Of a DNA stretch of 64,000 nucleotides, positions 29,758-53,864 are shown one piece after another (within the stretch, counting starts at the first letter, position 1; every line of letters starts with the position of its first letter). Below the pieces are notes generated by a model. The model ran no database searches. It was given only the letters and a program-made list of their open reading frames with translations, and had not been told where the DNA came from. Source of the stretch: a virus. Its lineage: Duplodnaviria; Caudoviricetes. The stretch is taken from positions 1 through 64,000 of IMG/VR virus record IMGVR_UViG_3300030376_006484, one strand, 5' to 3'. The position numbers and the translations under genes are program-made.

Positions 29758-30012
29758 ATGTGGAAAGACGAGATTAAAAAACAGGACTATAATGAAGACG
29801 ACTTCTTTATGACGGAAGAAGCAGTTGAGGGGAAAGTTGGAGAAAAAATACAGGAAATGTATAGTATGGCGGAAGAACTATCTAAAATGCAGAACATTTT
29901 GAGTAGCCCTGACTTTCAACGAGGTTTTCCAAAGTATTCATTGAAAGAAATTGAGAAGGCTGTAAAGGGGTTAGGTATGGCCGTTAGTGTTATGGAGAGT
30001 TTTCCTTCGTGA
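29758..30012 (+). CDS. WxxIxK-leader protein (MWKDEIKK)
   Basis: AGGTGG SD, ATG 29758. Confidence 0.65.
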   Translation: MWKDEIKKQDYNEDDFFMTEEAVEGKVGEKIQEMYSMAEELSKMQNILSSPDFQRGFPKYSLKEIEKAVKGLGMAVSVMESFPS

Positions 30013-30042
30013 GCAAAATTATGAGAAATTTTAGGTGATATT

Positions 30043-30306
30043 ATGACATGGAAAAACAACATTAGAAAAGAAAGTCCTTTGGATGAAAGAGCAGGTTTAG
30101 CCGATAACGAAGGTAGAGAAGTTCCTCCAACAGAAGAAGACAAAGAGGTTCATTCCTACTTAAATGAGATATTAGGAGAATTATCAAGAGAAATGCGTGA
30201 CATTCCTGTAAGATTTTCAGGAGATAGTGACTTATTAGAAGAGGCTATTAAACATATTGAAAGGGCTATTTATGCTATTCAAAGAGCCAAAAGAAGGATG
30301 AGGTGA
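30043..30306 (+). CDS. WxxIxK-leader protein (MTWKNNIRK)
   Basis: AGGTGA SD. Confidence 0.65.
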   Translation: MTWKNNIRKESPLDERAGLADNEGREVPPTEEDKEVHSYLNEILGELSREMRDIPVRFSGDSDLLEEAIKHIERAIYAIQRAKRRMR

Positions 30307-30311
30307 TTATT

Positions 30312-30578
30312 ATGACTTGGAAAGATGAAATACAGAAAGAAATGCCTAAAGGAGAAGGCGGAAAACATAAGCGTATGGGAGAATTATTGGGCGGTATGGG
30401 TATGAGAATTACTTTTGATGCTATTACCCAAAAAGAACGACACTACAAAAGAATAAAAAGTGACGAGGCACAAACTTTGTCTAATTTTTTAAATGAGGCT
30501 AAAGATGCCGCATTAGAACTAATAATGAAAATTAATGATGCAAATAAATATTATGAAGTAAATAAAGATGCGCTTTGA
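30312..30578 (+). CDS. WxxIxK-leader protein (MTWKDEIQK)
   Basis: AGGTGA SD. Confidence 0.65.
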   Translation: MTWKDEIQKEMPKGEGGKHKRMGELLGGMGMRITFDAITQKERHYKRIKSDEAQTLSNFLNEAKDAALELIMKINDANKYYEVNKDAL

Positions 30579-30598
30579 TAGAAAAAAAGGTGATTATT

Positions 30599-30748
30599 AT
30601 GACATGGAAAGATAGGATTAAGAAGAAGGAAAGCGAATGTCCCGAATGCGGTAAGAAAAAAGATTTGGAATTTAGAATTCTTTCAAGAGACAATTACGGT
30701 GTAATGTGTAAAGACTGTTATCGTGACAAATCAGTAGCAGGTAAGTGA
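30599..30748 (+). CDS. 49-aa WxxIxK-leader zinc-finger protein
   Basis: Manual translation MTWKDRIKKKESECPECGKK...MCKDCYRDKSVAGK; AGGTGA SD. Confidence 0.65.
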   Translation: MTWKDRIKKKESECPECGKKKDLEFRILSRDNYGVMCKDCYRDKSVAGK

Positions 30749-30757
30749 GGTATTCTT

Positions 30758-31714
30758 ATGTTTAGGCTTTTCTTCTCAATAGATGGTGGTAATTTTGCCC
30801 CTATTGGAGAAAGTGAAAAGTCACGATTAAGGGCTAGAAATATGGTTGCTGATATTTCTAGAACGCTTGGTTATTCTTTTAAAGGCGATGAATTCAAAGG
30901 TAGTCTTGTTAATGATGAGTCTACAATTTTATATGAAATTAGAGAGAAGGAATCCGAAGATAAGTGGAAGGATATACTCAAGAGTCGTAAGATAACAGAC
31001 CCTAGAGCAAGGCGAAAGGATGATGGGAATACTACTAACTTTGGTTGGTCTACACCTGCTTTTGCAACTAAAGAAGAAATACAGAGGCGAAATGCTCCTT
31101 CTGTTTCTAAAGAAGAAATACTAGCCATTGTTGATAGTTACACTGAAGCCCTTATTTTTCCATTAGTCAAGGAAGCAACTTTGCCTATAATTGAAAAATA
31201 CAGTGATAGGGATAAGGGCTATGACGACGAGTACGGTGCAGATGGATTGGAATATTTTGCAATAGCATTAAAGAATTGGTCATACCATCCTGAGAGGGTT
31301 TCTAAAGATATTAAATCATTAAATGATAAAGACTATCGTTTATTTTTAAATGAGTTACAGAAAGAATTCAAAAATATTCGTAATTTGTCTGTTTATATGG
31401 GGCCGGAAGACGGTTATGACATGGAAACCGAAACTTATCTTGGTTCAAAGGGTAGACGCTCCGAAAGTGCTACTTGGTTTGAAAGGTTTAGAAGTGTATT
31501 GAAGGATGATGAGTATTTTATTAACGAATCGTCATACGAGACTGTTGATGAGTATTGGGAAGATAGAGGAATAACGGCTGATAGAGTTTTGGCTGAATTA
31601 AATTCTGCTTTGAATAAGGTTAAATCTTCTTTGCAAGGTAAAGGTTTATTCAATAATGCTAAGAAAATATTTGGAGATTACAGTAGAAAGATAGTTAGGG
31701 GTGAGAAAAAATGA
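30758..31714 (+). CDS. Hypothetical protein with internal WKDILK motif
   Basis: ORF track; KWKDILKSR near residue 70. Confidence 0.65.
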   Translation: MFRLFFSIDGGNFAPIGESEKSRLRARNMVADISRTLGYSFKGDEFKGSLVNDESTILYEIREKESEDKWKDILKSRKITDPRARRKDDGNTTNFGWSTPAFATKEEIQRRNAPSVSKEEILAIVDSYTEALIFPLVKEATLPIIEKYSDRDKGYDDEYGADGLEYFAIALKNWSYHPERVSKDIKSLNDKDYRLFLNELQKEFKNIRNLSVYMGPEDGYDMETETYLGSKGRRSESATWFERFRSVLKDDEYFINESSYETVDEYWEDRGITADRVLAELNSALNKVKSSLQGKGLFNNAKKIFGDYSRKIVRGEKK

Positions 31715-31947
31715 GTTGGAGAGATGACTTGGCCCGTGATGGTATAACTTTGGTAATTAAGAGGCAACTTTTTGAAATTTTAGGTAATCAGCCGGAAATT
31801 ACTGCTAGAGGCATTGAAGAAGCCTTGTATGGTCGTGGTCATAAGAGGGTAAATATGTCAAAAATTAAAAAATTTGTGGCTAAGACTCCCGAAATACGAC
31901 TTAACGAAAAATATAGTGAGACTAACACCTATTCATTGGAGAAGTGA
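31711..31947 (+). CDS. Winged-HTH-like small protein
   Basis: ITARGIEEAL...NMSKIKKFV...YSL. Confidence 0.5.
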   Translation: MSWRDDLARDGITLVIKRQLFEILGNQPEITARGIEEALYGRGHKRVNMSKIKKFVAKTPEIRLNEKYSETNTYSLEK

Positions 31948-31952
31948 ATAGA

Positions 31953-32417
31953 ATGTGGTTTGATATTATTAAATCGGTTGAAATTTTGACCGAAAATTCG
32001 GCTAGTAAGATGTTAGACGGGTTTAAGACTGCGGTTGAGAAGGGTTATCCTGCAATTATTACTCCTTTATCGCTTGTTGCTAAGATTCAAGATGGCGAAT
32101 TGGCCGCTTTTACCTCTTTTAACGATATGGGGAAGTTTTTCTTTGTTGGAAATAGTTTGACTAATCCAAAATACAAGGGTCGGGGTTATTTTACTCAAAT
32201 TTTGGCTTCTAGAGATGAATATACTAAGGGAAAACCTAGAATTACTTTGCTAAATCCTTTGGATGCTAAGTCTAGGGGCATTGTTAGGGCGGTTGTTACC
32301 AAAAAAGGTGGTAAGGAAGTGACTTCTTATGCTGATGTTCAAGATATTATGGATGAGCAGACCTACAAAGGGATGAAAAGCACTAATTTAGATATGTTTA
32401 GGTACAAGGTGATTTGA
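31953..32417 (+). CDS. GNAT-like acetyltransferase with WxxIxK leader
   Basis: MWFDIIKS; NPKYKGRGYF acetyl-CoA-binding motif A. Confidence 0.6.
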   Translation: MWFDIIKSVEILTENSASKMLDGFKTAVEKGYPAIITPLSLVAKIQDGELAAFTSFNDMGKFFFVGNSLTNPKYKGRGYFTQILASRDEYTKGKPRITLLNPLDAKSRGIVRAVVTKKGGKEVTSYADVQDIMDEQTYKGMKSTNLDMFRYKVI

Positions 32418-32608
32418 TGACATGGAAAAACATACTCAAAATTAGTACCGAAGAGGCAATTCAAGATGCTGAGAGGTATGCAGACCCCGAAGATACTGAA
32501 ATGGAAAAGGTAGCAGGTGCGGTAACTACATCAAGTGCGGCCCATTCCCTTCTATTTAGGCCGACCTTTGGCGGTAAGCGAAGGAAGCGCAAAAAGAAGG
32601 AGGATTGA
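32417..32608 (+). CDS. WxxIxK-leader small protein
   Basis: MTWKNILK; basic tail. Confidence 0.6.
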   Translation: MTWKNILKISTEEAIQDAERYADPEDTEMEKVAGAVTTSSAAHSLLFRPTFGGKRRKRKKKED

Positions 32609-33681
32609 TTATGCCTAAAGATGTAAAAAAGGTCACTGCTACGGTTGGTGATGCAATTCTTACTACTAAAGCAGGAATTATTACCTTTCCTAAAAAGTAC
32701 ACTGCTTGGAAGAGACAGTGTAGTAGTTTAGGGCCGGAGAAAGTTGGTGGTAAGACTTCTCTTTTGGTTGCTTTGAGGCGACATGGTGTTCCTACTAGAC
32801 CTACTTCTCCTAATGCAGGTGGAGTAAAAGGGATGAAATTCACTTTGATGGAGATTGAAAAGGTGATAAAGAGTAGACCTAATGGTATTTACTACGATAG
32901 TGATGTTGAGACTTTTCAAGAATTACTAGATGATTTAGATATTTACGGGGATGGAGGGGATTTAGACCCTGCTTCTATTCCTTTTACTACTTATCCTATG
33001 TCTAGAGGAAAGAGAATCCCCGATGCTAAATCTACGAAAATTCATGGTCACTATATTGATGAATATTTTGCTTCAAAATTCGCTACATCTGTTAAACTTG
33101 ACGATGCTAAAGGTTGGAGTAATAAGGAAAAAGGCTTGGCTAATCCTCCATTGAAACAGGCTATTTTTGGTGGGCTTCTATTTACTGAAAGTTTAAATGA
33201 TATTTTGCAGTTGGCTATCAAAGAGATAGAGAATATGGAATACAATATTGAGATTAAGACAGGGCGTTCTCCTGTTAGATTAGTAAACATTCCTTCTTTT
33301 AGGTCAAAGTTAGCAGGTGCGGTAAAATCTTCTTTAGTTGATGGTGCTATTAGTATCAAGGGTGTTAGAGGTAAAATGAATGGAATATTTTTCCCTATTA
33401 AGACTGAGAAGGAGGAATCATTCGTTGCTGATTATGCTAAGGCTAAAGGTATTGGTGGGTCTTTTACTTCTTTCAAGGTGAACATGACTCCTGCGGCAAC
33501 CAAGAAATTAATTGAAACTTACATGGCTACTTCTAGGGGAGTCAAAGAGCGAGACATTGTGAAGTCTTGGGTAGATGTAATCAAAAAGAAAACAAAAACT
33601 TGTCCTGTTTGTGGGCATGAAAACCATAAGGATGCTAACAAATGTACTAATTGTGGTGCTGATATTTCCGATGTAAAGTGA
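32605..33681 (+). CDS. Hypothetical protein with C-terminal WVDVIK plus zinc ribbon
   Basis: ...DIVKSWVDVIKKKTKTCPVCGHEN...CTNCG. Confidence 0.7.
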   Translation: MIMPKDVKKVTATVGDAILTTKAGIITFPKKYTAWKRQCSSLGPEKVGGKTSLLVALRRHGVPTRPTSPNAGGVKGMKFTLMEIEKVIKSRPNGIYYDSDVETFQELLDDLDIYGDGGDLDPASIPFTTYPMSRGKRIPDAKSTKIHGHYIDEYFASKFATSVKLDDAKGWSNKEKGLANPPLKQAIFGGLLFTESLNDILQLAIKEIENMEYNIEIKTGRSPVRLVNIPSFRSKLAGAVKSSLVDGAISIKGVRGKMNGIFFPIKTEKEESFVADYAKAKGIGGSFTSFKVNMTPAATKKLIETYMATSRGVKERDIVKSWVDVIKKKTKTCPVCGHENHKDANKCTNCGADISDVK

Positions 33682-34340
33682 TTATTATGCGAAGAAAGAG
33701 TTGTGCTTTTTGTCAGCATGAGAATGCTAAGGAGTTTGAACAACAGTTGGAAGACTGTGTTATTTCCTGTGATGATTTAGACCAACAGGAAAATTGGCGT
33801 AGTGGTACTGCGGCTCAACATCAAAGAAACCACATGGGGGATTATGTTACAAGTAGTAATCCTAAGTGTAATTTCTGTACTGACCCTCTAAGGAAACAAT
33901 ATGAGGTTGGATTAACTGAGGGCAAGTTAGAAGTTTCTATTGTTGCAGATATTTTAGAGACTACTAAGAGTCAAATCCACCGACACATGAAACATCATTT
34001 GGCTCCTATTGTTCAAGAGTCTGCGGCTACAATAATTGCTAAGAAGGAAGTTAATGAAGTTGATATGTTAGCCAATAACTTAGAAGTGTTGGATGGTAAA
34101 CTTACTGAGATTGCTTCAAGGGATGATTTAGATTCTAAGGAGTTAGATGCTTTGGTTAAGTTGGCTAGAGAGATTCGTGAGTCATTGAAATACATGATGG
34201 AGTTTAAGGGTAAGTTAATACATAAGAGACAGGACACAATAATTATTGCACAGATGCAAATTGTCCAAGAAGTTTTGGCTCAAGGACACCCCGAAGTTTG
34301 GCTTGATGTAAAGAAGAAGATGCAGGAGAGATTACAATGA
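33678..34340 (+). CDS. Putative terminase small subunit (Zn/HTH plus coiled coil)
   Basis: Two CxxC-HTH-HxxxH repeats (CAFCQH...HQRNH; CNFC...HRHMKHH) then an oligomerisation-like helix; upstream of TerL. Confidence 0.45.
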   Translation: MIIMRRKSCAFCQHENAKEFEQQLEDCVISCDDLDQQENWRSGTAAQHQRNHMGDYVTSSNPKCNFCTDPLRKQYEVGLTEGKLEVSIVADILETTKSQIHRHMKHHLAPIVQESAATIIAKKEVNEVDMLANNLEVLDGKLTEIASRDDLDSKELDALVKLAREIRESLKYMMEFKGKLIHKRQDTIIIAQMQIVQEVLAQGHPEVWLDVKKKMQERLQ

Positions 34341-34597
34341 ACTGGAAAGAAATACTAAAGCAGAATATGAAGAGTTATCCTAAAAATATACTTTATGATG
34401 ACATAGAATACGAATTAATTCATGTTGATGATAAGGCTATTGAATATGATAAAAATGGTGACCCTATGGGAACTTATGTACCAAAGGAAGCCGATGAAAA
34501 TTTAGACGAACAAGTGGTATATTTGGATTTACCAGATGCAAAACGCCACATGATGCTTTTATTAAATAAAGAAGAAATGCAGGAGAGATTACAATGA
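34337..34597 (+). CDS. WxxIxK-leader cassette protein
   Basis: MNWKEILKQ; ends MQERLQ like the upstream gene. Confidence 0.7.
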   Translation: MNWKEILKQNMKSYPKNILYDDIEYELIHVDDKAIEYDKNGDPMGTYVPKEADENLDEQVVYLDLPDAKRHMMLLLNKEEMQERLQ

Positions 34598-34839
34598 GTT
34601 GGAAAAAAATATTGAAACAAGATGAAATATCCCGAATGAAAGATTCTCTAAACGCTAATATGGATTTACTTAATGATTATTTTAAAAAAATGGAAGAGTT
34701 AATGGGTTCCCTTGAGTCTCAACAAATAGAAAAAGCAGAAAAACTTTGGACGGATATGCAAGACATGGTAAAAGATGTTGAGGGCTTAGGCTTACACAAA
34801 AATATTCACGCTTACTTAAACAGGATTATTTTAGACTAG
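34594..34839 (+). CDS. WxxIxK-leader cassette protein
   Basis: MSWKKILKQ. Confidence 0.7.
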   Translation: MSWKKILKQDEISRMKDSLNANMDLLNDYFKKMEELMGSLESQQIEKAEKLWTDMQDMVKDVEGLGLHKNIHAYLNRIILD

Positions 34840-34850
34840 GAGAGATTACA

Positions 34851-35264
34851 ATGAGTTGGAAAGATATACTGAAATTAAGACCAATAGAGGATATACCCGA
34901 TGAAATGTATGATGATTCATATTCTTATCAAAATCCTAAAGAAGTTGAGAGTTTGATGAGAAGAAAACAAAAGAAGGGTGGGCTACTTTGGTATATTGAA
35001 AAGGATTTTGCACAAAACGCAAATGTGGCGGATTGGACTACTGATGAAGGAGTTAAATTTTGGGATATGGTAGTTTCGGATTTGAAAAATATTTACAATA
35101 CTAATAATTTAACACATAAGAACTATAAAAATGGAACTATTCTAGCGGGTAGAGAAGGCGTGGACAAATCTGTTTTTGCTATGATAATGAACCTAGACCC
35201 GAAGTTTGGTGCGCCTATAAGTGGTAGTCAATTTATGAGAGAAAATAAATTCCGAGGCTTTTGA
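34851..35264 (+). CDS. WxxIxK-leader cassette protein
   Basis: MSWKDILKL. Confidence 0.7.
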   Translation: MSWKDILKLRPIEDIPDEMYDDSYSYQNPKEVESLMRRKQKKGGLLWYIEKDFAQNANVADWTTDEGVKFWDMVVSDLKNIYNTNNLTHKNYKNGTILAGREGVDKSVFAMIMNLDPKFGAPISGSQFMRENKFRGF

Positions 35265-35280
35265 TACAGGAGAGATTACA

Positions 35281-35496
35281 ATGAAATGGGAAAAACTACT
35301 AAAAAATGATTTTGAAAAAATTGATTTATTTATACAAAAGATGAAAAGAATCAATATTTCAGCACAAGAAGCGTTTAAAGAATTTGAAACTGAAAAGTCT
35401 ATAGAGATGCAACAATTAGCGACTACTATTATTGATATGGGAACTGCTATAATGGACTTGGAAAAGATGAGAGATAGACAAGAGAAATTACAATGA
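35281..35496 (+). CDS. WxxIxK-leader cassette protein
   Basis: MKWEKLLKN. Confidence 0.7.
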   Translation: MKWEKLLKNDFEKIDLFIQKMKRINISAQEAFKEFETEKSIEMQQLATTIIDMGTAIMDLEKMRDRQEKLQ

Positions 35497-35518
35497 GAGT
35501 GAACAAGTAGAGATTAGC

Positions 35519-35593
35519 ATGAGTTGGAAAAATATACTAAAAGATGCAAAGAAAGTCACTATGAAGTTTCACCCAAAAGAGGAATTACAATGA
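35519..35593 (+). CDS. 24-aa mini-cassette MSWKNILKDAKKVTMKFHPKEELQ
   Basis: Manual translation; bounded by junction repeats. Confidence 0.5.
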   Translation: MSWKNILKDAKKVTMKFHPKEELQ

Positions 35594-36045
35594 GTTGGAT
35601 GGGTATAGTCAAACAAAAGACTTACGAGGTTTATATTAAAAATCATCGTAATGCTAAAAAATACCCTAATTGGACTAAAATTAATTTACAACTAGACGGG
35701 TATGACCAATCTACATCTTCTAGAGAATTGGCTAAACATTTTTTTGAAGAAAAGTCTTTCAATCTTGGAGACAAAAATCCTTTCATTGTTGAAGGAGACA
35801 ACACATCGGGTTATGTCGTTCCTTATGGTTTTGGAACTGCAAGTCCCATGATGGGTTCCGAATACAATAGATTTCAAGGAGAGAATGTTCTTTTTGCAAA
35901 TGGCCCAACATATTTTTATGAGATTGTTGAGTCGGGAGAACAACCAAAGAATGCTAAACCGCCTACTTTTACTATGGCTGAAAAAATTAGTAATTATGTT
36001 AGGATTAACAAAGAACAAGGTGTAGATGTTAGCGATTATTTTTAA
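35590..36045 (+). CDS. WxxIxK-leader cassette protein (MSWMGIVKQ)
   Basis: GAGG SD and junction repeat before ATG 35590. Confidence 0.7.
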   Translation: MSWMGIVKQKTYEVYIKNHRNAKKYPNWTKINLQLDGYDQSTSSRELAKHFFEEKSFNLGDKNPFIVEGDNTSGYVVPYGFGTASPMMGSEYNRFQGENVLFANGPTYFYEIVESGEQPKNAKPPTFTMAEKISNYVRINKEQGVDVSDYF

Positions 36046-40193: not shown

Positions 40194-40197
40194 TTTT

Positions 40198-43623: not shown

Positions 43624-44324
43624 TGTGGTTTGATATTCTTAAAGAAAGAGTTGGTTCTAAGGTTCAGCAGGAAATGTCTGCTTTAGCAGATAAAGTACCT
43701 ATACCTAATATGGATAAAGATTTTGACTTTAAGAAAGAATATACATATGACGAATTAATACCATTATTAGAATTCGGTAGTAGTGTTGAATACGATTTAG
43801 ACAAGGTTCTCAAAGAGTTTATGTCTGAAAAATATAGATATGAAAATATGTCTGAATCAGACCGTAAGGCTTTAAGAAGAAGAGGTGAAATGCCTAAACC
43901 TTTTACTTTAGAAGAAGTAAAGGATAAGATTCTTTTTAGATTGGATGGTGGTGATTTTGATATTAAAGAAGAAAACGGTAAAACAATTATTAATGTACCT
44001 ACATTTAAAGAAGATGTTGATAATCTAAAAACAAATGCCTTAGATGAATTATATGCGGGTAAAAAGCAAACTGCTAATCAACCTAAAAAACCTAAATGGT
44101 ATACTGATTATAGGGCGGAGGATGTTATAGACCCCGATGTATATACCGAGAGGAAAAAGAAAACCATGGCTGAGAATTTTCTTGGTAGGTTGATGGCCGG
44201 TTTAAGGAAGGAAAGAAGGGGGTTCCATACACCATCAAAAAACAAACTACACCCTCAATACGGTAGACTTAGAGAACTTGAAGCCCGTAATAAAAAGGTG
44301 CATAGGAGAGAGGATTTAAAATGA
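43623..44324 (+). CDS. WxxIxK-leader protein
   Basis: MWFDILKE. Confidence 0.7.
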   Translation: MWFDILKERVGSKVQQEMSALADKVPIPNMDKDFDFKKEYTYDELIPLLEFGSSVEYDLDKVLKEFMSEKYRYENMSESDRKALRRRGEMPKPFTLEEVKDKILFRLDGGDFDIKEENGKTIINVPTFKEDVDNLKTNALDELYAGKKQTANQPKKPKWYTDYRAEDVIDPDVYTERKKKTMAENFLGRLMAGLRKERRGFHTPSKNKLHPQYGRLRELEARNKKVHRREDLK

Positions 44325-44346: not shown

Positions 44347-44724
44347 ATGATGTGGTTTGAAGAATTGAAGAAAGAGAAGGATGCCTGTTATCGTAAGGTA
44401 AAGTCCCGCTACAAAAAGTGGCCTTCTGCTTATGCTTCGGGTGCTTTGGTTCAATGCAGAAAAGTTGGTGCAAAGAATTGGGGTAATTCTGTAAAGAAAG
44501 GCGGAGATAACTTCGCTAGAGAAAAGAAAGAAGGACTTCACGGTTGGTTTTCACGAAGAGGTGGAGATGGACAGAAAGGTTGGGTTTCTTGTCAATCATG
44601 TGAAGATGATAAAGAAGGGACAAAACCCTGTGGCCGTAAAGATGCTACTAAAGGAACTAAACAAAGATGTAGGCCGACATGTGCGGCTTGCAAAACCTAC
44701 AAAAGAAGGAAGGGAACAAAATGA
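44347..44724 (+). CDS. WxxIxK-leader basic Cys-rich protein
   Basis: MMWFEELKKE; DACYRKVKSRYKKWPSAYASGALVQCRK motif recalled from marine phage proteins. Confidence 0.7.
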   Translation: MMWFEELKKEKDACYRKVKSRYKKWPSAYASGALVQCRKVGAKNWGNSVKKGGDNFAREKKEGLHGWFSRRGGDGQKGWVSCQSCEDDKEGTKPCGRKDATKGTKQRCRPTCAACKTYKRRKGTK

Positions 44725-45113
44725 TTTGGAAAAAAATATTGAAAGCGCACTGCAATACAGAAAAAGCCGGTTACGGTTCCGATTGTAATTGTAGTGCATG
44801 TGAAGAAAAAATGGAAAAGAAACTTGTCGGTGGTCAAAGAAAATTAGACCGAGACAAAGATGGAAAGATTACAGGTAAGGATTTTTCCATGTTAAGAGAT
44901 AGTGCTAAGAAGGCTGACCCAACAGAAACAATCGTTTCTACTCTAGAAGAAGAGGGTGGAGCATCCGGTTTAGAACCTCTAGAAGAGTCCACTAAAATGT
45001 CTAAGGATGAATTAAAAGATATGCTAGAGAACATGGAAAATGTTGTTCAGCACAAAAAGGGAGACTATATTTTGTTAGATGGTTTGCCTTTACCTACAGA
45101 AGAAGAGGAATAA
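44721..45113 (+). CDS. WxxIxK-leader protein with EF-hand-like loop
   Basis: MIWKKILKA; LDRDKDGKITGKDF. Confidence 0.7.
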   Translation: MIWKKILKAHCNTEKAGYGSDCNCSACEEKMEKKLVGGQRKLDRDKDGKITGKDFSMLRDSAKKADPTETIVSTLEEEGGASGLEPLEESTKMSKDELKDMLENMENVVQHKKGDYILLDGLPLPTEEEE

Positions 45114-45115: not shown

Positions 45116-45517
45116 ATGAGTTGGAAAATTTTAGTCAAGGCATTTTCTTGTCCTGTTGCTACTCAAGATTTGAAATTGAATACTAAAAATAGAGATAGAG
45201 CAGTCAAGGAAAAGTACATTCAGTACGGGCCTTTGAATTTAGAAGATGAAGACTATTGGGTTAGGTATGCAAAGAAATGGAATACTACTGCTGATGTTGC
45301 TAAGAAGTCTAATTGTAGTAATTGCGTAGCGTTTGATATTTCTCCTAGAATGGATGAATGTATGCCTCTAAATACAGACGAAGATGGCCGTTTAGGTTAT
45401 TGTTGGATGCACGATTTCAAATGTCATTCTGCTAGAACTTGCTACACTTGGGCTAAAGGTGGCCCAATTGATGATGATAAGACCTCAAAAGAAAACCAAC
45501 AGAGGAGAGAAAAATGA
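45116..45517 (+). CDS. WxxIxK-leader Cys-rich protein
   Basis: MSWKILVKA; CSNCVAF...GYCWMHDFKCHSARTCYTW. Confidence 0.7.
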   Translation: MSWKILVKAFSCPVATQDLKLNTKNRDRAVKEKYIQYGPLNLEDEDYWVRYAKKWNTTADVAKKSNCSNCVAFDISPRMDECMPLNTDEDGRLGYCWMHDFKCHSARTCYTWAKGGPIDDDKTSKENQQRREK

Positions 45518-45801
45518 GTTGGAAAACCATTCTAAAAAAAGACAAAAAAGATATGCGGGTTGGGACTGTATATCCTAGTGATAGAAGCGGTAAGAAAATC
45601 ATGATGCTCACCCATGAAGGAAAGAAAATTCATGCGGGTGCTAAAGGATATGGTAACTACAAAGGAAAGGGTAAAAATCGTGGTGGTGGAACCCACAAGA
45701 ACCCTAAAAGAAGAAAGTCATTCAAAGCAAGGCATAAGTGTCACGAATGCAAAGGGAGAATAACAACTCCTAGATGTTTAGCCTGTAAGAAATTATGGTG
45801 A
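45514..45801 (+). CDS. WxxIxK-leader basic protein
   Basis: MSWKTILKK; IHAGAKGY...RRKSFKARHKC. Confidence 0.7.
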   Translation: MSWKTILKKDKKDMRVGTVYPSDRSGKKIMMLTHEGKKIHAGAKGYGNYKGKGKNRGGGTHKNPKRRKSFKARHKCHECKGRITTPRCLACKKLW

Positions 45802-45852
45802 CAACAAACATCATTAATGATGGCTATTGAACAGTAATTGGGGAGAATACAT

Positions 45853-47494
45853 TATGGCTGATAAAAGACGATTTTCCTTCACAAATCTATTCCGAAGGAC
45901 TACTCCTAAACCCAATGATAGAAAGGTCTACAATGTAGGAATTCAAGAGAAAGAGCAATCCTACATGATGACAGGGCCATTGGTCTACAATGTCGTGGGG
46001 CAATCGGTAATTGTTAGAACATGTATTACTCAACTTAAGCAAGAAATTTTTCGCAGAGGCTATGTTTGGGAAAAGGCGTTTGAGTCTCGTTGTCTATCTT
46101 GTCAAAAAACACACAAGATGCCTGTACTTGAATGTGCTAGATGTGGTTCTACAGACTTAGAAAAACCTAATCCAAAGCAGTTAGAGTACGCTGAAAATTT
46201 CATAGAAGGGTATGTAAATAAGTCCGAGCAAAAATTCATTGATGTATTTAAAGAATTAGAAGATGATTTGAATATCATGGATGATGCGTATATTGTTCTT
46301 GTCAAAGAGTATTACTTGGATGGTAACGGCAAAATCCGTATGCACCGAATCAAGGAATTGTTTAGAGGCGACCCTGTAACTATGACTATCTATGCTGATG
46401 AAGTAGGCATTAGAGGAACAAAAGGTTTCACTTGTATTAACCATAGAAGCCATCTTGCCCATGAACCACATGAAAGTTGTGAAGAATGCGGTAGTCCTCT
46501 TTATCCTGTTCACTATGTAAATCGTGCTAATGGAGAACAGCAATATTTCTTACAAGGAGAAGTTTTGCACTTTAGCAAATACAGTCCTAGTAGAATGTAT
46601 GGGCAGTCTCCAATTCTAACTTTATTCAATAATATAATGACTCTTATCGCTATGGAAAACTATGTCAATTCTTCTTACACCAAGAGTAGAATGCCTAGAG
46701 GTTTGTTAGCAGTACAAACTAGAAATATGGATTCAATGGCCGCATTTTGGAGAGGTGTAAAAGAACGAATGGAACAAGACCCTCACTATATTCCTGTTAT
46801 GGGAATTGAAGCCGAGAATGGTAAGGGGTCTGTTGAATGGATTAAATTCATGGACAGTTTAAAAGAAATGGAATATGTCGCAGTGAAGGATGATTTGCGA
46901 GATAGAATTTCTGCATTCTTTGGAGTAAGTAAAGTATTCATGGCTGACAACACTACTAGCGGTGGACTTAACAATGAAGGTATGCAAATCTTAGTCACTA
47001 ACAGAGCAGTACAAATGGCTCAAAATGTTTACAATAATTATGTATTCCCGTTCTTAACTAAAGAGTTTGGAATTACAGATTGGGTTCTAAAATTACCCCC
47101 TAGTGAAGAAGAGGATGAAATAGCAGTACTTCGTAAAAGAGAGATTGAAGTTAATATTGCGGCTTCTACTAAGAATCTAGGATTTGAAGTAGATATGGAT
47201 GAAGACGGACAGTTTACTTTTAGTAAGCCGGAACCAAAAGAAACACCTAAGCAAGAAGGAGAAGAAGATTCTAGCGTTGATATTGACCCTTATGCGGGAA
47301 CAAATATTGATGCTTCGCAAATGGGACAGATGCAAGAACAGATGATGCAAGCCGGAAGTAAACCACAAGAGAACCCACCGGCCACAAGAAATAAAGCAAG
47401 GATGAGCGTAGGGCCGGATAAGCGCATGACAGGATTACCTAAAGAAGCGGGTAATCAAAATGTTGATTCAAGAAGTGAAAGGAGAATACCATAA
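45853..47494 (+). CDS. Portal protein with zinc-ribbon insertions
   Basis: DLNIMDDAY, EVLHF, YGQSP, MPRGLL, ISAFFGV portal pattern; between TerL and protease; start approximate. Confidence 0.85.
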
Positions 47495-47715: not shown

Positions 47716-47720
47716 TTTTA

Positions 47721-49355
47721 ATGTCTTTTATGGATGTTCTAAAGATTCAATTTCCTACCGAAGAGGCTAAGGAAGAAGACTTGAATGAAGTAAAAGAAGA
47801 GATGGAGGTACTAGAACCTCAAACATTATCGTCATTAAAAACTAATTCCGAATTGATGGGATATTATAAGACCATAAAGAATTCTTTATCGGAAATAGTA
47901 GGTGAACAAATAAAATATAATAAGGATGAAAAAGAGGCTAGGGAAACAACTAATAACGGCAGAAAAGAAAAGGGTAGAAAGCCTTTGGTAGTTAGGAATT
48001 CTGCTAAACTAGATTTACAAGACCCTCTAAATCCTAAAGAAAGAATGACTTTTGACATTCCACTAAAAGGAATCACTGAGGCAAAGATAGGAAAAATCGT
48101 TTTGGGAGAATTATTAGAATCTATCAAAGCAAAAGTTAAGCGTTACTCCGAAGGAACAATAATGCAACCTAAAGAAAAAGAAGTTGTGGCGGAAGAACCT
48201 AAAATTCCTAGAGTAAAGGAAATAAATGATTTCGTTAATTCGGGAGAAAACAGAGAAAATACTTCTTTTGATATTGAAAAACTAAGTGCGGTATTACTAG
48301 ATATAGAAAAAACAATACAAGAAAATACTCCCCCAACTCAAGATTTATCTATGCTTCTAGACTTAGGAAAACTACGCTCACCAATTGTTGTTGCAATAGA
48401 TTCTGCTAAATCTATTATTGATAAAGTACAAGGTAGAAATGCTGATACTATGAATAGGTTGAGAATACTACTGCAAGATATTAGAAAGTCGGATTTAGTA
48501 GCGGTTCCCTATAAAAGAAAATTAACCCCTCATATTAAGTCCCTTGAAGAATTAAAAAACCTAACTTTTACTATTAAGGGACATACAGTGCAACCTGCAA
48601 CCATAAACAAAGTAAAAGAACTACGGGATATGTTAGTACAACTGAATAAAAACAGAAACACAAATTACGATGTTGTGAAGGCAATGGGTAGAGGGGCTAC
48701 GGCAAAAAATAATTATAGTTTCTTAAAGAATGTTAGTAAAAACACCCAATCTATTTTCTATAATTATGTTAAAGCAGGAACAGATTTTTTAAGTCCTCTG
48801 CGACAAAAAAATAATAAGATAAGGTATTTTAAAGATGACGCTACTACCGATAACGAGAAAAAACGCTATGGTGAATTAGAAAAGGTAGGTAAGGAGATAC
48901 ATAGTTTGTTAAATTTGGAAGACAGTCCGGCAAGCCTAAATCAAAAATATTTAGATGATTTAGAATCTGCTAGGAAAGAAGGTAAAAGTAGTTTTACTAT
49001 TAATGATGGTGTAGAACCTTTAGAAGTGATAATAGACGGATTGGAACCAAAAGATGTTGAAGACTATATTTTGTTTATTGCTAAGGAAAATGGAAACGAT
49101 AGTCTCTTAGAAGAGTTGATGCAGACCTACCAATCTTTAACAGGTATAGTAATAGATGTTGCAGAAAACAAAAAGATGCGAAAAGAACTTGCTAAACTAA
49201 GAAAGGAAGTTTTAGCAAGTGTTACACAAAGCGAAGACCAACGCACTGATTTGAATAGACTTTTGGATGATGTAAGGGAATCGGGATTAGAGCCTATGGA
49301 AATTACCGATAGTCTTGCTAGCGAAAGGAAAAAACAAAAAGAAGAAGAGGAATAA
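47721..49355 (+). CDS. Large coiled-coil protein with leader-like MSFMDVLK
   Basis: GGTGA SD, ATG 47721. Confidence 0.7.
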   Translation: MSFMDVLKIQFPTEEAKEEDLNEVKEEMEVLEPQTLSSLKTNSELMGYYKTIKNSLSEIVGEQIKYNKDEKEARETTNNGRKEKGRKPLVVRNSAKLDLQDPLNPKERMTFDIPLKGITEAKIGKIVLGELLESIKAKVKRYSEGTIMQPKEKEVVAEEPKIPRVKEINDFVNSGENRENTSFDIEKLSAVLLDIEKTIQENTPPTQDLSMLLDLGKLRSPIVVAIDSAKSIIDKVQGRNADTMNRLRILLQDIRKSDLVAVPYKRKLTPHIKSLEELKNLTFTIKGHTVQPATINKVKELRDMLVQLNKNRNTNYDVVKAMGRGATAKNNYSFLKNVSKNTQSIFYNYVKAGTDFLSPLRQKNNKIRYFKDDATTDNEKKRYGELEKVGKEIHSLLNLEDSPASLNQKYLDDLESARKEGKSSFTINDGVEPLEVIIDGLEPKDVEDYILFIAKENGNDSLLEELMQTYQSLTGIVIDVAENKKMRKELAKLRKEVLASVTQSEDQRTDLNRLLDDVRESGLEPMEITDSLASERKKQKEEEE

Positions 49356-49357
49356 TT

Positions 49358-49705
49358 ATGTGGGAACATGTACTAAAAGAAACAATAGAAAAAGAAAACA
49401 GTCCGATTTTACAATCGTTAGACGATAAGAAAAGAAAAAGGTTGAAGAAGACTCTACAATCAACAGAACCTACGGAGTACTTCGGCCAAGATTTTACTCG
49501 CTTAGGTGAATTGATTGATATGCTCAAAGAATTAGAGTTAATCAAATCCGATGAAAAAATGACAAAGAAGTTTAAGTCCATAGATGAAAGGAACATTGAT
49601 ATGTTAGCCCTATCTAGCAAACTTCGTAAGGAGTATGAATTACTGTACCGACAACTTCGGGAAGTCATTTATCCAAGTAGAAAGGGGGATTTAAGAGATG
49701 AGTGA
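49358..49705 (+). CDS. WxxIxK-leader protein
   Basis: MWEHVLKE; internal LIKSD. Confidence 0.65.
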   Translation: MWEHVLKETIEKENSPILQSLDDKKRKRLKKTLQSTEPTEYFGQDFTRLGELIDMLKELELIKSDEKMTKKFKSIDERNIDMLALSSKLRKEYELLYRQLREVIYPSRKGDLRDE

Positions 49706-49922
49706 AACAGACGAAGAAGTTTTAGAAATCCTAAAGGCTCTAGTGGGTAGAATCAAGACTCTAGAACAAGCAGTCTACAACAAAGACAATATTCTAATGA
49801 AGTCGGGATTTGTTGTTGCTCAATCCCCTACTCCTTCAATTACTAACTCAACCATGCCGACAGATGATGTAATTCATAAAATGTCTTGGGATGATATAGA
49901 GAAATTTGTAGGTGGACGGTGA
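49698..49922 (+). CDS. Small scaffold-like protein with C-terminal MSWDDIEK
   Basis: C-terminus resembles the scaffold C-terminus MDWSDIHK. Confidence 0.65.
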   Translation: MSETDEEVLEILKALVGRIKTLEQAVYNKDNILMKSGFVVAQSPTPSITNSTMPTDDVIHKMSWDDIEKFVGGR

Positions 49923-50167: not shown

Positions 50168-50176
50168 GGCGAATAA

Positions 50177-52645
50177 ATGCCCTCTACAGGTTTAACTATC
50201 GGGAAAGTCAAAGCCCCCGTTTCCGACGAAATACTACATCTGTTTGAGAAGGTTAGAGTATCTTATCTATCTGCAAAGGAAGATAAGAAAGAATACGGTG
50301 GTCGTTGGAGAAACACACTAGAAGAAATAAGCGAAGCATTTGATTCAATTTCTCCTTTGGGTAAAGAAATTAATGTTTTCTTAGACGAAAGGCATTTAGA
50401 AGATAATGATTCTAAAGACCCCGAAAGCACTACTGCTAGAATTATTTACGAAGCCATTAAAGATATGCGTTTCAAATCGGAAGAAGTAGAAGACCCCTTC
50501 GCTGACCGATTCAAAGGTAATGTGTTAGAAGCATTACTATCCGATGTTGGTACAATGGTCAAATTTATTCATTATGCTATTCGTTCCGATGAGAAAGCCT
50601 TACCTGCTGATTTCTACAAATCTAAAGAATTACAAGAAGATGAAATTACTGATGGATTGGAAGGACTTGATTTAGTAGTTGATGATGTTCCTTTGTTTAT
50701 CATTGAGCATTATGGTGACGATAAGGATTCTAAGAAGGTGGAAGCACAATTCAAAAAAGCAAATAAGATACTAGAAGAAATGATGCTATCAAATTCTTCG
50801 GAAGAAGATTTAGAAGAATTAGTAGAGGTTGATTTAGAAAAGGCCGAGAAAACTGAAAAGGCATCTTCTCAATTTATTGTTCCTAACAAACCCATGTACC
50901 GAATCTTTGACATTGATGACATGAATGAATTGAAAGGGTTTAGTGGAGAATATGTTGTCCAAGAAAAATATGATGGTATGCGAATACAGATTCATAAAAT
51001 AGATGACAAAATCAAAATCTACTCCTATAATGAAAAGGACATTACAGACAAGTGTTCCGAACAGGTCAAGGAATTACAGAAAAAGGCATACGGTGATTGT
51101 ATCCTTGATGCTGAGTTAATTTTGTTTGATGGAGAGAAAGCCCTCCATAGGGCAGATACAATAGCCCATGTTTTCAAGAATAAGTACAAAGAGGCTAGAC
51201 TAAGAGCGCATGTTTTTGATATTATGAGACATGAGGCTCAAAACCTTACAGAAGAACCCCTAAGAGATAGAATCAACATACTGTTCAACAATTATTCTTC
51301 CAAGTCTTCTTCGGATTTGGTTTACCCTTCAAAGAAAGATACTCGCATTGCTGACTCTCTAAAAGATATAGCAGAATACGCAGAAGAGATTATGGAAATG
51401 CCTACTTCGGAAGGAGTAGTCATTAAAGATATTGAATCCACTTACTTTATTGGTACTAAGAAAAACCCCAAGTGGGTTAAGTGGAAGAAGTTTGTAGATT
51501 TAGATATGGTCGTTCTAGACAAGAAATCTACTAAGTCCGGTCTTTACTCTTACACTTTAGGAGCAGGGCCAGTTGATGATGAGGACGAAGGTAAGCACAT
51601 TGTTGAACAGAACGATAGAAAATACATGAATGTTGGTAAGGCACTTAATACTAAGATTAATGCAAAGGTCGGCCAAATTATTAGAGTCAAAGTAGATGAG
51701 GTAAGAGAGGATAATGGTAGGTTTACTCTTTACTCGGCTAAGGTTATTGAAATACCCGAAGTTGAATTACCCGACAAAATAGTAACTTTACAAATGCTTT
51801 CTCAAGATACTAAACCTAGTATTAAATACAAAACTATGGCTTTGAAAAAAGGAATAACAATCAGTGATGGAATTCACGGCACTGCAACTTTGATTGCTAA
51901 AAGCATGGATGGCTTTACTTTGTACGGATTTAAAGAAACTAATCTTATGGCTAAGAATGCAATTCATGATTTAGATATGTGGAAAAAGGAAGCAGAAGAA
52001 ACTATGAAAAGTCTACAATCGGAAATATATGTGGGAGTTATCAATCTAATAAAAAGAAAGGGGCCACAACCAATAACAGAGGTACATGACTTCTTGATTA
52101 GGAATTATGGTAGCCAATACGAAACAGTATTAGAAAGCGATAAGAAAGAACTACCCGATTGGTTGAACCGTAGGGAAGACATATCAATATCCAACGGTAA
52201 GGTTTCAATTGACGATTCTAAAATAATTAAAGAGAAGCCTTCTCAATTTAAAATTTATTTGAGAAAGGACGGCAACCTTAATTTTTCAGTACAGCATAAA
52301 GAAGAATTATTGATGTGGACTATTGATTTAGAAACTGATGATGATATATTCGCATTGTTTGGTAAAGCAGTAAAGTATCCTGCGGAAATATCCGAGCAAC
52401 AAGATACTCATAAATTAATAGACGAAGGAGATGTAGAGGTAGGTGTTCAAAGGCATGGATACCATGAGTACATTTTAGACGGTAATAAGTTTGAGACTAA
52501 ATTACATTTCCGAGTAGTAGATATTAAGGATAAGGAAAGTTGGGTTGCTTGGACAGGATATGAGCAAAAACCTGTAGATAAAGATACAGACGAAGGCGTT
52601 TGGAATATCTATGAAGATAAGTACAAAACTCTAAAATTAGAATAA
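50177..52645 (+). CDS. Second ATP-dependent DNA ligase, multidomain, in the head module
   Basis: QEKYDGMRIQIH, CILDAE, HVFD, EGVVIKD, WVKWK motifs; long acidic N-terminus and an extra C-terminal domain. Confidence 0.9.
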   Translation: MPSTGLTIGKVKAPVSDEILHLFEKVRVSYLSAKEDKKEYGGRWRNTLEEISEAFDSISPLGKEINVFLDERHLEDNDSKDPESTTARIIYEAIKDMRFKSEEVEDPFADRFKGNVLEALLSDVGTMVKFIHYAIRSDEKALPADFYKSKELQEDEITDGLEGLDLVVDDVPLFIIEHYGDDKDSKKVEAQFKKANKILEEMMLSNSSEEDLEELVEVDLEKAEKTEKASSQFIVPNKPMYRIFDIDDMNELKGFSGEYVVQEKYDGMRIQIHKIDDKIKIYSYNEKDITDKCSEQVKELQKKAYGDCILDAELILFDGEKALHRADTIAHVFKNKYKEARLRAHVFDIMRHEAQNLTEEPLRDRINILFNNYSSKSSSDLVYPSKKDTRIADSLKDIAEYAEEIMEMPTSEGVVIKDIESTYFIGTKKNPKWVKWKKFVDLDMVVLDKKSTKSGLYSYTLGAGPVDDEDEGKHIVEQNDRKYMNVGKALNTKINAKVGQIIRVKVDEVREDNGRFTLYSAKVIEIPEVELPDKIVTLQMLSQDTKPSIKYKTMALKKGITISDGIHGTATLIAKSMDGFTLYGFKETNLMAKNAIHDLDMWKKEAEETMKSLQSEIYVGVINLIKRKGPQPITEVHDFLIRNYGSQYETVLESDKKELPDWLNRREDISISNGKVSIDDSKIIKEKPSQFKIYLRKDGNLNFSVQHKEELLMWTIDLETDDDIFALFGKAVKYPAEISEQQDTHKLIDEGDVEVGVQRHGYHEYILDGNKFETKLHFRVVDIKDKESWVAWTGYEQKPVDKDTDEGVWNIYEDKYKTLKLE

Positions 52646-52685
52646 AAATCCGATAAGGCTATATAGTCAATTATAGAACGAAGGT

Positions 52686-53864
52686 TTGAGTAATATGTCG
52701 CCAATCATTAAGGCGCAACGATTTGATGACTTTCAAATAATCAAAAGCGACGAATTAATGATAGGTGGATATGCTTCTATTGAAATGGTAGATAAACAAA
52801 ATGATTTGATTACCTTAAAATCACTTAAAGAAGCAGTAAACAAATTTATGGAACAAAAAAACTTCCGAAATGTAATGACAAACCACTCAAATGTCCAAGT
52901 AGGAGAAGTAGTAGAAAATTACCGAGACTCAAATGGAAGACTATGGAAAACCGAAGTAGATGATGTAGGATTTTTTGTAGTAATTAAATTAAGGGACGAC
53001 ATAGAAAAAGCCAAAGAAATAGGCAGAGGAATTCGCAAGGGAACATTAAGGTCTTTTAGCATTGGAGGACAAGCATTACAGAAAGTAAAAAAGCGCAGTG
53101 AAGAGTTAGGCGAATTTAGTGAAATTAGCAAACTTGAATTGCACGAAGTAACAATCTGTGAAAAAGGAATAAATCCCGAAGCGAAATTTGACATACTCAA
53201 ACAAGAGGTGACTAACATGAATAAATTGGAAAAAGCATTGGCGGAATTGGATACACTTCTAGAAGAAGTGAACACTCTCCGTAAAGAAGAAGAAGAAGCC
53301 CCCGAAATGGAAAACATGGCGGGAGACGAAGAAGAAATGATGGGCGGAGAATATATGGATGATACCCGTAAGGCTCCTACTGCTACGCTTGACGGCGGCT
53401 CTGTAGAAACAGGTGAACCTGCTGAAAGAGTTGTTGTAAGCGGTGGAAAACCAACAGGTTCTTCACAAGCAGAAGAAGAAGGTATGGTTTCAAAAGCATT
53501 CGGTAACGGAGAATTTGATACTCTAAACCTTTCCCCCGAAAACATTGAAAAGGCTTATGCTCAGTTTAGAGCAGAGCAAATGGAAAAACTTGCATACGAT
53601 AATTTGCAAGACTCCTTCACTAAGAGATTTGCTAGTGAAGTTACTAACCGTGAAGAAATGGTTGCAAAGTCCGAGTACGATGCACAATCAGAAATCACTG
53701 CTCTCCGTGAGCAATTTAGTGACCTTCGTAAGTCTTTGACAGAAGGAACAGAAGAAATTCGCAAGGCCAACGAAGCCGCACAAGAAGTTAAGGTGCTTTC
53801 CCTAGAGGAAGTTGCTGACATGGATTGGAGCGACATTCACAAGATGGTTAGCGGAAATATTTGA
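52686..53864 (+). CDS. Prohead protease (HK97/U35 type) fused to scaffold
   Basis: GGYAS...DKQND, NH, SFSIGG, LHEVTIC...NPEA followed by an acidic coiled-coil region. Confidence 0.9.
   Translation: MSNMSPIIKAQRFDDFQIIKSDELMIGGYASIEMVDKQNDLITLKSLKEAVNKFMEQKNFRNVMTNHSNVQVGEVVENYRDSNGRLWKTEVDDVGFFVVIKLRDDIEKAKEIGRGIRKGTLRSFSIGGQALQKVKKRSEELGEFSEISKLELHEVTICEKGINPEAKFDILKQEVTNMNKLEKALAELDTLLEEVNTLRKEEEEAPEMENMAGDEEEMMGGEYMDDTRKAPTATLDGGSVETGEPAERVVVSGGKPTGSSQAEEEGMVSKAFGNGEFDTLNLSPENIEKAYAQFRAEQMEKLAYDNLQDSFTKRFASEVTNREEMVAKSEYDAQSEITALREQFSDLRKSLTEGTEEIRKANEAAQEVKVLSLEEVADMDWSDIHKMVSGNI

Follow-up and report, generated by a model that had tools for sequence, protein, structure and literature searches.

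A shared N-terminal tag on unrelated structural-arm proteins of a magrovirus-like virus resembles the tail of its scaffold and may act as a capsid-targeting leader

Why would many small genes of one virus, whose products are otherwise unrelated, open with nearly the same eight residues? The question is raised by a 64,000-nucleotide window (the whole stretch of DNA analyzed here), which represents the first 64 kb of the 86,150-bp magrovirus-like virus record IMGVR_UViG_3300030376_006484. An earlier note on this DNA had listed 19 genes between 29.7 and 49.4 kb with a short N-terminal leader built around a Trp and a Lys, and had read this tag as a code for loading cargo into the capsid. All 19 listed start sites indeed consist of an ATG followed by the motif M-x-W-x-x-(I/L)-(L/I)-K (F for W at 47721), one of them, at 35519, opening only a 24-codon stub.

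Across 599 unique contexts from the window and 80 terminase-anchored relatives, the tag aligned best as M-(x)-W-x-x-x-(I/L/V)-K, with the consensus M-S-W-[KEQ]-[DEN]-I-L-K. The strict motif opened 669 open reading frames (ORFs; at least 35 aa required) on the coding strand and none on the opposite strand of 160 related stretches (L001-L160) plus this genome, and a looser motif opened 651 vs. 5 ORFs in the terminase-anchored stretches (L001-L080, 1.36 Mb), i.e., the leader is general to magrovirus relatives. A count of residue triples in N-termini that was blind to the motif likewise recovered M-S-W (73 of 535, vs. 0.02 expected). Relatives are non-independent samples in all of these counts; a chance origin of the tag is excluded. 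Among 60 inspected members of the 300 ORFs scored as leaderless by a regular expression, most had GTG or other non-ATG starts or variant leaders, and none came from replication-arm loci, making this set uninformative.

The tag is also restricted to one arm of the genome. On the minus-strand arm (1-26 kb) lie genes for PolB, a clamp loader resembling RFC, an ATP-dependent ligase, a chaperonin of the Cpn60/thermosome family, a UvrD helicase, and a protein weakly similar to TFIIB; the plus-strand arm has, in order, genes for the large terminase (40162-41625) and the portal (45827-47494), then for a second large ligase fusion, an S78 protease-scaffold, and the major capsid protein. Over the entire 86,150 bp, the tag occurs only on plus-strand genes at 29.7-49.4 kb, with no N-terminal tag on the minus-strand arm or beyond 49.4 kb. 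Based on a crude gene caller, 16 of 66 plus-strand genes are tagged vs. 0 of 65 minus-strand genes (Fisher p = 1e-5). Four near-complete genomes gave 16/66, 14/66, 16/68, and 18/78 tagged genes on the structural-arm strand and 0/65, 0/68, 0/65, and 0/66 on the other, or 64/278 vs. 0/264 when pooled (Fisher p = 5e-21), and the reported absence of the motif from the early arm thus extends beyond this genome. In replication-arm loci from 56 relatives (1.02 Mb), the coding strand held 28 loose matches and the opposite strand 3, 11 of the 28 belonging to one off-consensus family and few of the others resembling the consensus.

Selection on this tag acts on the peptide, not on the DNA. Synonymous codons vary freely while the residues stay fixed: the conserved Leu is encoded by all six of its codons (CTA 134, TTA 104, TTG 89, CTT 63, CTC 47, CTG 13), the Ile by all three, and the final Lys by AAA (384) or AAG (192), in proportions that vary as in the background. 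Genes initiated at GTG retain the tag peptide, and conservation upstream of the start, which translates as 'GEIT', corresponds to the Shine-Dalgarno region and spacer. Conservation at the DNA level only, which the earlier note had named as an outcome that would speak against its proposal, is therefore not what these genes display.

Behind this conserved peptide, the passenger proteins are highly diverse. The 655 tagged ORFs from 81 genome stretches form 244 BLAST families without similarity beyond the tag, most of them present in one to four loci, with a median passenger length of 104 aa (interquartile range 81-144, range 33-650 aa; seven families >300 aa). Near-complete genomes carry ~14-18 tagged genes each by crude gene count. 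In the window, the ~29 plus-strand genes at 29.7-49.4 kb include 17 with a W leader, one with an F variant, and one with a partial leader, i.e., 17 plus two variants, and the untagged ones are mostly recognizable enzymes or large conserved proteins. In relatives, tagged genes also cluster at two hot spots of insertion among late genes, which lie 3-4.5 kb and 8-9 kb downstream of the gene for the capsid protein. The passengers have almost no Pfam or PHROG annotation. A DUF5754 domain passes the Pfam cut-off in 45514, where it sits behind the tag; with passenger families being unrelated, the tag is portable. Matches to DUF5872 and to zinc ribbons are mostly below cut-off, and the acetyltransferase (GNAT) label of 31953 is a language-model lead only (score 0.94), with no GNAT support in Pfam or PHROG and nothing below E = 0.1 in a PDB sequence search. 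The GNAT and zinc-finger labels given to the payload are therefore weak, and passenger isoelectric points are bimodal.

What connects the tag to the capsid is a related motif at the C-termini of two distinct proteins. The first (52686-53864, +) combines a prohead protease of the S78 (HK97) family and a scaffold domain in one protein, with a Pfam Peptidase_S78 match at residues 23-180 (E = 2.2e-10; S78_2 being the sole other match), followed by a helical, acidic scaffold domain of ~210 aa, and with the capsid gene starting 12 nt downstream. Its C-terminal end in the window is ...MDWSDIHKMVSGNI, with the tail MDWSDIHK at 53820-53843. An AlphaFold2 model, poor overall (mean predicted local distance difference test, pLDDT, 46.7), contains a long helix at residues 281-363 (pLDDT 73-85) and, with low-to-moderate confidence, a short helix over the tail. 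The form M-[DSNE]-W-[SNA]-D-I-H-K-M-(V/A)-G-G was found in 80 of 80 relatives, and among representatives clustered at 50% identity, protease-scaffolds with as little as 31% identity still have the core [ML]-S-W-x-[DE]-[IV]-[HN] at the C-terminus. The second protein is a 74-aa mini-scaffold (49698..49922, +) in which a Pro-rich linker joins an N-terminal helix containing L-E-I-L-K-A to the tail MSWDDIEKFVGGR. Many relatives in this family (75-110 aa) end in M-[DE]-W-[SK]-D-I-H-K-M-V, in many cases letter for letter the M-D-W-S-D-I-H-K-M-V of the scaffold. More broadly, the tail motif was found 128 times at the C-terminus of small ORFs, mostly from the 49698 family (71 distinct 49698-type tails) and with the 33678 family included. 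The C-terminus of the scaffold is the usual coat-binding element in tailed viruses. The conserved mini-scaffold with the same tail, together with the presence of that tail in all 80 relatives, strengthens the suspected link between the tag and the capsid machinery. The statement that the same motif ends both proteins nevertheless needs qualifying: leaders and tails share the core M-S-W-x-[DE]-[IV], but the tails have His where the leaders have Leu.

The second half of the tag, I-L-K, resembles Lys sites in the head proteins. The eight hydrophobic-x-K-(A/S) tetrapeptides previously listed in ORF 52686-53864 are all present, and an alignment of 67 scaffolds identified six Lys sites (K183, K270, K289, K328, K349, and K360) conserved within an otherwise variable domain, with Lys in 97-100%, a hydrophobic residue at P3 in 97-100%, and A/S at P1' in 84-100% of sequences. 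Mini-scaffolds carry the sites L-E-I-I-K-A, L-E-K-[TA], and L-L-M-K-[SA]. In the major capsid protein (53876-55207, +), the conserved N-arm N-S-L-L-K-Q (L25-K27 at 53948-53956) is a candidate for both a maturation site and a docking region, and x-L-L-K-[AQS] occurs at residue ~27-34 of capsid proteins in four clades (77/77, 28/28, 9/9, and 59/65). The type member of the S78 family, HK97, cleaves its capsid protein at K103/S104 (PMC10275583). Together with the capsid L-L-K and the scaffold sites, this makes a Lys-specific maturation site plausible. One further candidate was discarded: F-D-I-L-K-Q at the protease-scaffold junction (residues 168-173), considered as a third leader-like cleavage site, is probably structural, since it lies inside the Pfam S78 match and F-x-[IV]-[LIV]-K is kept down to 29% identity; it is therefore not counted as evidence for the capsid interpretation.

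We lean towards reading the tag as a capsid-targeting leader that is removed after its Lys and works like the targeting sequence of phage T4. The tag would then consist of two overlapping parts, of which the first, M-S-W-x-[DE]-I, would copy the tail core of the protease-scaffold and mini-scaffold. Tagged proteins would dock through this W/acid/Ile core at the site used by the scaffold tail, either the capsid inner face or the N-arm, and would be enclosed as the shell closes. The second part, I-L-K, would be a Lys-specific S78 maturation site, cut after the Lys as is proposed for the capsid N-arm and scaffold, and the freed passengers would remain with the DNA and reach the host during infection. 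Four steps of this scheme are inferred from sequence: binding to the capsid protein, removal of the tag after the Lys, presence in the virion, and injection. The fast turnover of the mostly orphan tagged set is expected of injected host-takeover or counter-defence proteins. A more ambitious version, which we advance tentatively, is a modular address label: any protein acquiring the tag might be loaded by mimicking the scaffold docking tail, cut at the Lys, and injected, giving each virus ~15-20 effectors from hundreds of cassette-swapped families.

Several observations weigh against this interpretation. The residue before the Lys is L, I, or V in 473 of 481 leaders and never H, vs. H in 105 of 127 tails. 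A or S follows the leader Lys in only 39 of 244 family representatives, without enrichment. Passengers are not uniformly basic DNA-binders, 35% having an isoelectric point >9 and 42% <5.5. To our knowledge, 17-19 passengers per genome also exceeds any described system based on a single packaging tag. In addition, the arm opens with a block (29.7-36 kb) made up of 11 tagged genes and the 35519 stub, at least 17 kb upstream of the head genes, and in many phages early genes sit at the start of an arm. The capsid L-L-K is found in all clades, including a clade without leaders, and therefore says nothing about leaders specifically. A complex prediction combining the capsid protein (34-row alignment) with residues 1-36 of 34851, run without controls, scored 0.00 twice, below a mark of 0.32, and counts neither for nor against binding.

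Sister clades (here X, Y, and Z) add a further complication, as leaders do not co-vary with tails across them. In clade X, tails read W-[GS]-D-I-H-[NS] and have lost the Lys, while the leaders (213 N-terminal W leaders, vs. 16 on the opposite strand) retain W-x-[DE]-I-L-K, the Lys being present in 165 of 213. Clade Y has the tail L-S-W-E-E-V-N-E, and its few leaders still follow the consensus. Clade Z keeps the tail M-S-W-[DE]-E-V-H without the leader system (7 matches on the coding strand, from one family, vs. 10 on the other strand in 0.95 Mb); the tail therefore serves some function for which leaders are not required, which also weighs against the capsid reading. That leaders but not tails of clade X retain the Lys is consistent with a role of this residue in the cutting of leaders and not in docking. 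We conclude from these alignments that the tail is old and has a function of its own, and that the leader is a later, clade-restricted invention sharing only the M-S-W-x-[DE]-[IV] core, with the Lys mattering for leaders and not for tails; the claim of one common motif holds in sister clades for this core alone. Such a pattern is expected of a two-part tag combining a docking core with a cleavage site, and is also compatible with different partners for leaders and tails. Separately, at the two clade Z loci inspected (L454:3514-9945 and L491:4227-9971), a single giant ORF of 1,914-2,143 aa, with D-[FL]-L-K-S at ~residues 14-18, lies directly upstream of the protease-scaffold, in the place occupied here by the ligase and small genes. 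It may be a packaged protein replacing many small tagged ones. The head module of halovirus HVTV-1 also encodes large proteins, of 1,048 and 1,313 aa.

The possibility of different partners underlies the strongest alternative, which we consider unlikely: the tag may dock a different late-phase partner, such as the virus-encoded group II chaperonin, the portal, the terminase, or a host factor, with the passengers acting in the infected cell, or may be a processing signal for a protease that acts outside the capsid. The divergence of leaders and tails at a key position, their lack of co-variation, the leaderless clade Z, and the location of many tagged genes where the arm begins, at a distance from the head genes, would all be accommodated, and the genome encodes its own Cpn60/thermosome-family chaperonin. 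However, the chaperonin gene lies on the arm without tagged genes, and we know of no recognition of short motifs by group II chaperonins. The W-x-[DE]-I core is otherwise found only in the scaffold and mini-scaffold, in both cases at the C-terminus, the classic coat-binding position.

We give little credence to a second alternative, which sees the conserved stretch chiefly as a feature of the nucleic acid or of the gene cassette (ribosome-binding site, start, and first codons conserved for translation or as homology for swapping), with the peptide as a by-product. A ~20-nt block (..caggagagattacaATGA..) does occur four times, at 34316-34360, 34573-34617, 34830-34874, and 35260-35304, each copy containing the ribosome-binding site and start codon of one gene along with the last codons and stop of the previous one, so that ..MQERLQ or ..RQEKLQ recurs at the C-termini of unrelated proteins. 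The corresponding ggagagattacaATG block upstream of the leaders at 34337, 34594, 34851, and 35281 is near-identical and extends over the stop codon of the gene before it. Leaders are where homology blocks between relatives begin or break off (ends at 34354 and 35304 for L001, at 43647 and 45127 for L081), and 13 leader stubs are found on the coding strand, so that the tag also marks the borders of exchangeable cassettes. Lys at position +1 is encoded by AAA in 95% of cases, vs. 69% in the background. Nonetheless, a DNA-level explanation is at odds with the free variation of synonymous sites around fixed residues, with the peptide being kept in GTG-start genes, and with the presence of the same residues at scaffold C-termini, where no start signal is involved. 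We thus read cassette exchange at leaders as a consequence of the shared tag, not its reason.

Less credible still is a short amphipathic helix targeting the host membrane, similar to the MreB N-terminal helix or the MinD C-terminal helix. By inspection, the W, I, and L fall on one helical face, and the literal string WKDILK appears in the literature, among the matches listed, only in papers dealing with antimicrobial peptides (frog-skin and designed ones) or with other, unrelated topics. This hydrophobic face is, however, only three residues wide, the conserved D/E/N at position 5 is unfavourable for acidic membranes, and the related tail is found on a scaffold protein without known membrane role. 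Coincidence is the simplest explanation for the likeness to frog peptides. Least credible of all is an old, expanded paralogous family of which a now functionless N-terminus is the last recognizable remnant: tandem small genes with near-identical junctions at 34.3-35.6 kb do suggest local duplication, but eight residues are fixed across 244 families of 33-650 aa in three viral clades while the rest is unalignable, though a remnant would decay equally, and known domains such as DUF5754 sit behind the tag. The remaining probability we leave to something we have not thought of.

A host-derived origin of the signal was also considered and set aside, the host L27 protease, which processes the capsid and scaffold proteins of phage 80alpha, serving as the reference case. 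A degenerate DNA pattern for M-x-W-K-D-I-L-K matched at least 120 stretches of cellular genomes, and the 80 matches listed were single matches in unrelated taxa that look like chance, since a rough chance expectation is ~50 or more. None of these 80 listed matches had a Poseidoniales title, in a scan that did not search any host genome directly; within that scope, the scan lends no support to a host-derived signal. Similarly, no recurring N-terminal motif was detected in the HVTV-1 head module, where any one triple is common to at most 5 of 103 N-termini.

In the window, the tagged genes (all on the plus strand) fall into a first block and a set surrounding the portal gene. The block opens with leader genes at 29758..30012 (MWKDEIKK..., 84 aa), 30043..30306 (MTWKNNIRK..., 87 aa), 30312..30578 (MTWKDEIQK..., 88 aa), and 30599..30748 (MTWKDRIKK..., 49 aa), the last one Cys4 zinc-ribbon-like with every Pfam match below cut-off. 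The 318-aa ORF at 30758..31714 bears an internal leader-like DKWKDILK at 30965-30982, which is internal in relative L001 too, and is followed by a 78-aa ORF with the partial leader MSWRDDLA... (31711..31947), absent from the list of the earlier note. Next are the leader genes at 31953..32417 (MWFDIIK..., 154 aa, the GNAT lead) and 32417..32608 (MTWKNILK..., 63 aa). Beyond two untagged ORFs come those at 34337..34597 (MNWKEILK..., 86 aa), 34594..34839 (MSWKKILK..., 81 aa), 34851..35264 (MSWKDILK..., 137 aa, the exact consensus), and 35281..35496 (MKWEKLLK..., 71 aa). The ~24-codon leader stub at 35519..35593 (MSWKNILKDAKK...) runs into the leader gene at 35590..36045 (MSWMGIVK..., 151 aa) and is probably the scar of a cassette exchange.

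The two untagged ORFs at 32605 and 33678 have leader-like sequences at the C-terminus. In the 358-aa ORF at 32605..33681, the C-terminal part contains KSWVDVIKKK (W at 33568) followed by a zinc ribbon, and this C-terminus (residues 324-358) looks like a whole small leader plus Cys4 zinc-ribbon module fused in frame behind a larger protein. A free-standing 37-aa version, W-W-N-L-L-K-K-K-T-K-T-C-P-V-C-G..., is found in three relatives (family 28). The conserved 220-aa ORF at 33678..34340 ends in EVWLDVKKKMQERLQ (W at 34299), a C-terminal variant kept in relatives, with P-E-[IV]-W-L-[DE]-[IV]-K-K conserved at the C-terminus of the family. It is Cys/His-rich, lacks an N-terminal leader, and is one of the few genes of the 29.7-36 kb block conserved at the DNA level in ~30 relatives.

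Further along the arm, leader genes are found at 43623..44324 (MWFDILK..., 233 aa), 44347..44724 (MMWFEELKK..., 125 aa, basic and Cys-rich, with DUF5872 below cut-off and phrog_727), 44721..45113 (MIWKKILK..., 130 aa), 45116..45517 (MSWKILVK..., 133 aa, from a family present in 34 relatives), and 45514..45801 (MSWKTILKK..., 95 aa, with the DUF5754 domain above cut-off from residue 18, behind the leader). Downstream of the portal gene, the 544-aa post-portal protein at 47721..49355 carries the variant leader MSFMDVLK, and its large equivalents in relatives have looser, degenerate leaders in which F or Y replaces W. The last leader gene, at 49358..49705 (MWEHVLK..., 115 aa), belongs to a conserved family with looser leaders in relatives.

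The remaining gene content is that of a magrovirus. Magroviruses, tailed viruses associated with Marine Group II archaea, have been described as ~90-100 kb genomes combining a halovirus-like head module with their own replication module, including PolB, RFC, and ligase (PMC5434244). The present genome matches this architecture (86,150 bp, PolB, RFC, ligase, chaperonin, UvrD, and a halovirus-like capsid protein), its nearest cultured capsid proteins being those of haloviruses HVTV-1, HCTV-1, and HCTV-5 (~25% identity). It encodes two ATP-dependent DNA ligases: an ordinary 509-aa enzyme in the replication arm (8756-10285, -) and an 822-aa fusion (50177-52645, +) with long N- and C-terminal extensions, located inside the head module between mini-scaffold and protease. 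This position is conserved in relatives, clade Y loci having an 830-913-aa ORF before the protease. Directly after the terminase, a 662-aa ORF (41635-43623, +) matches an HNH/homing-endonuclease PHROG at residues 283-397, with a LAGLIDADG-like stretch visible by eye, and may be a conserved gene with an endonuclease insertion. The virus-encoded group II chaperonin (11373-12890, -; Cpn60/TCP-1 family, E = 4e-38) has viral relatives from 98% down to 33% identity, and a short-pattern scan of 185,579 genomes yielded no close cellular relative. A 274-aa replication-arm protein (15600-16424, -) with a weak TFIIB-repeat match below cut-off (E = 3e-4) could be a viral transcription factor controlling the switch to the structural arm.

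If tagged proteins are indeed packaged and injected, they would represent the largest virion-delivered effector repertoire known for any prokaryotic virus. They would also be the viral equivalent of cargo loading by encapsulins, in archaeal viruses that are among the most abundant of the surface ocean. A shared leader with a protease site, as in T4, would then be an independent invention, made on a protease and scaffold of the HK97 type by imitating the scaffold docking tail, and would provide a compact tag with which HK97-fold shells could be loaded with foreign proteins. Magroviruses are uncultured and encode mostly orphan genes, and the protease-scaffold family alone comprises 3,858 clusters at 90% identity. 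The tag could sort the orphans of thousands of contigs into a candidate virion-delivered class, and yield a list of candidates for host takeover or counter-defence in an abundant archaeon of the ocean. Should the capsid reading be wrong, the conservation of one eight-residue tag across 244 unrelated families would still call for an explanation.

As far as we could see, the tag is unreported, and we know of no described system of equal scale. The available text of two magrovirus papers (PMC5434244 and PMC11706807), supplementary tables not covered, contains no 'N-terminal' or 'leader' passage, and 'motif' in the latter refers to an unrelated helix-turn-helix protein. Literature on capsid targeting in archaeal viruses and on magrovirus metaproteomics or virion proteomes yielded nothing relevant, and none of the matches listed for literal leader strings describes the tag.

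Among known systems, the closest functional parallel is T4, where the capsid-targeting sequence (CTS) of internal proteins IPI-III and Alt is removed by the prohead protease gp21 at (L/I)-x-E. T4 internal proteins are diverse, counter host defences, and share only this CTS (PMC3012670), and the rapid turnover of magrovirus passengers matches theirs. In both cases, a short N-terminal leader on unrelated, fast-evolving proteins ends in a hydrophobic-x-charged motif, which in the magrovirus resembles the putative sites of its protease. The two differ in the protease family (gp21 vs. HK97-type S78) and in the charged residue (Glu vs. Lys); as the magrovirus protease matches Peptidase_S78 and S78_2 only, the present system would be an analogue of the T4 one and not a homologue. 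They differ as well in the resemblance of the leader to the scaffold's own C-terminal tail, seen here and undescribed for T4, and in scale, with a handful of tagged proteins in T4 compared to 17-19 genes per genome and 244 families in 81 stretches here, and in the host, which for magroviruses is archaeal.

In structural terms, the nearest precedent for such a motif in two or more proteins is phage 80alpha, whose scaffold and the CpmB protein of SaPI1 have a common C-terminal helix-and-hook, including an R-I-I-K motif, by which they bind the capsid protein's N-arm (PMC5644958). As with the M-D-W-S-D-I-H-K of the magrovirus scaffold and mini-scaffold, two proteins have a short terminal motif in common, there hydrophobic-hydrophobic-Lys after an amphipathic helix. 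The 80alpha motif is, however, C-terminal only, serves scaffolding and size control rather than cargo loading, and has no sequence relationship to the magrovirus tail. HK97 gp4 belongs to the same S78 family, and its K103/S104 cut, a Lys followed by a small residue, matches the hydrophobic-x-K-(A/S) and L-L-K-(A/Q/S) sites seen here. HK97 differs in having no separate scaffold and no tagged passenger family, whereas the magrovirus protease and its scaffold domain form a single polypeptide. In HK97, the protease reportedly has a C-terminal tail that acts as an encapsidation signal (Duda, Oh and Hendrix 2013).

Encapsulin cargo-loading peptides are likewise short, carried by unrelated cargo, and dock inside an HK97-fold shell, but are usually C-terminal, uncleaved, and non-viral. 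Finally, in phage P1, an N-terminal stretch of DarB suffices to send a foreign protein into the head, and the Dar passengers are anti-restriction proteins (PMC9024508). According to the authors of that study, Dar proteins have no consensus at their N-terminal ends (PMC9024508), whereas one strict consensus is shared by all passengers here.

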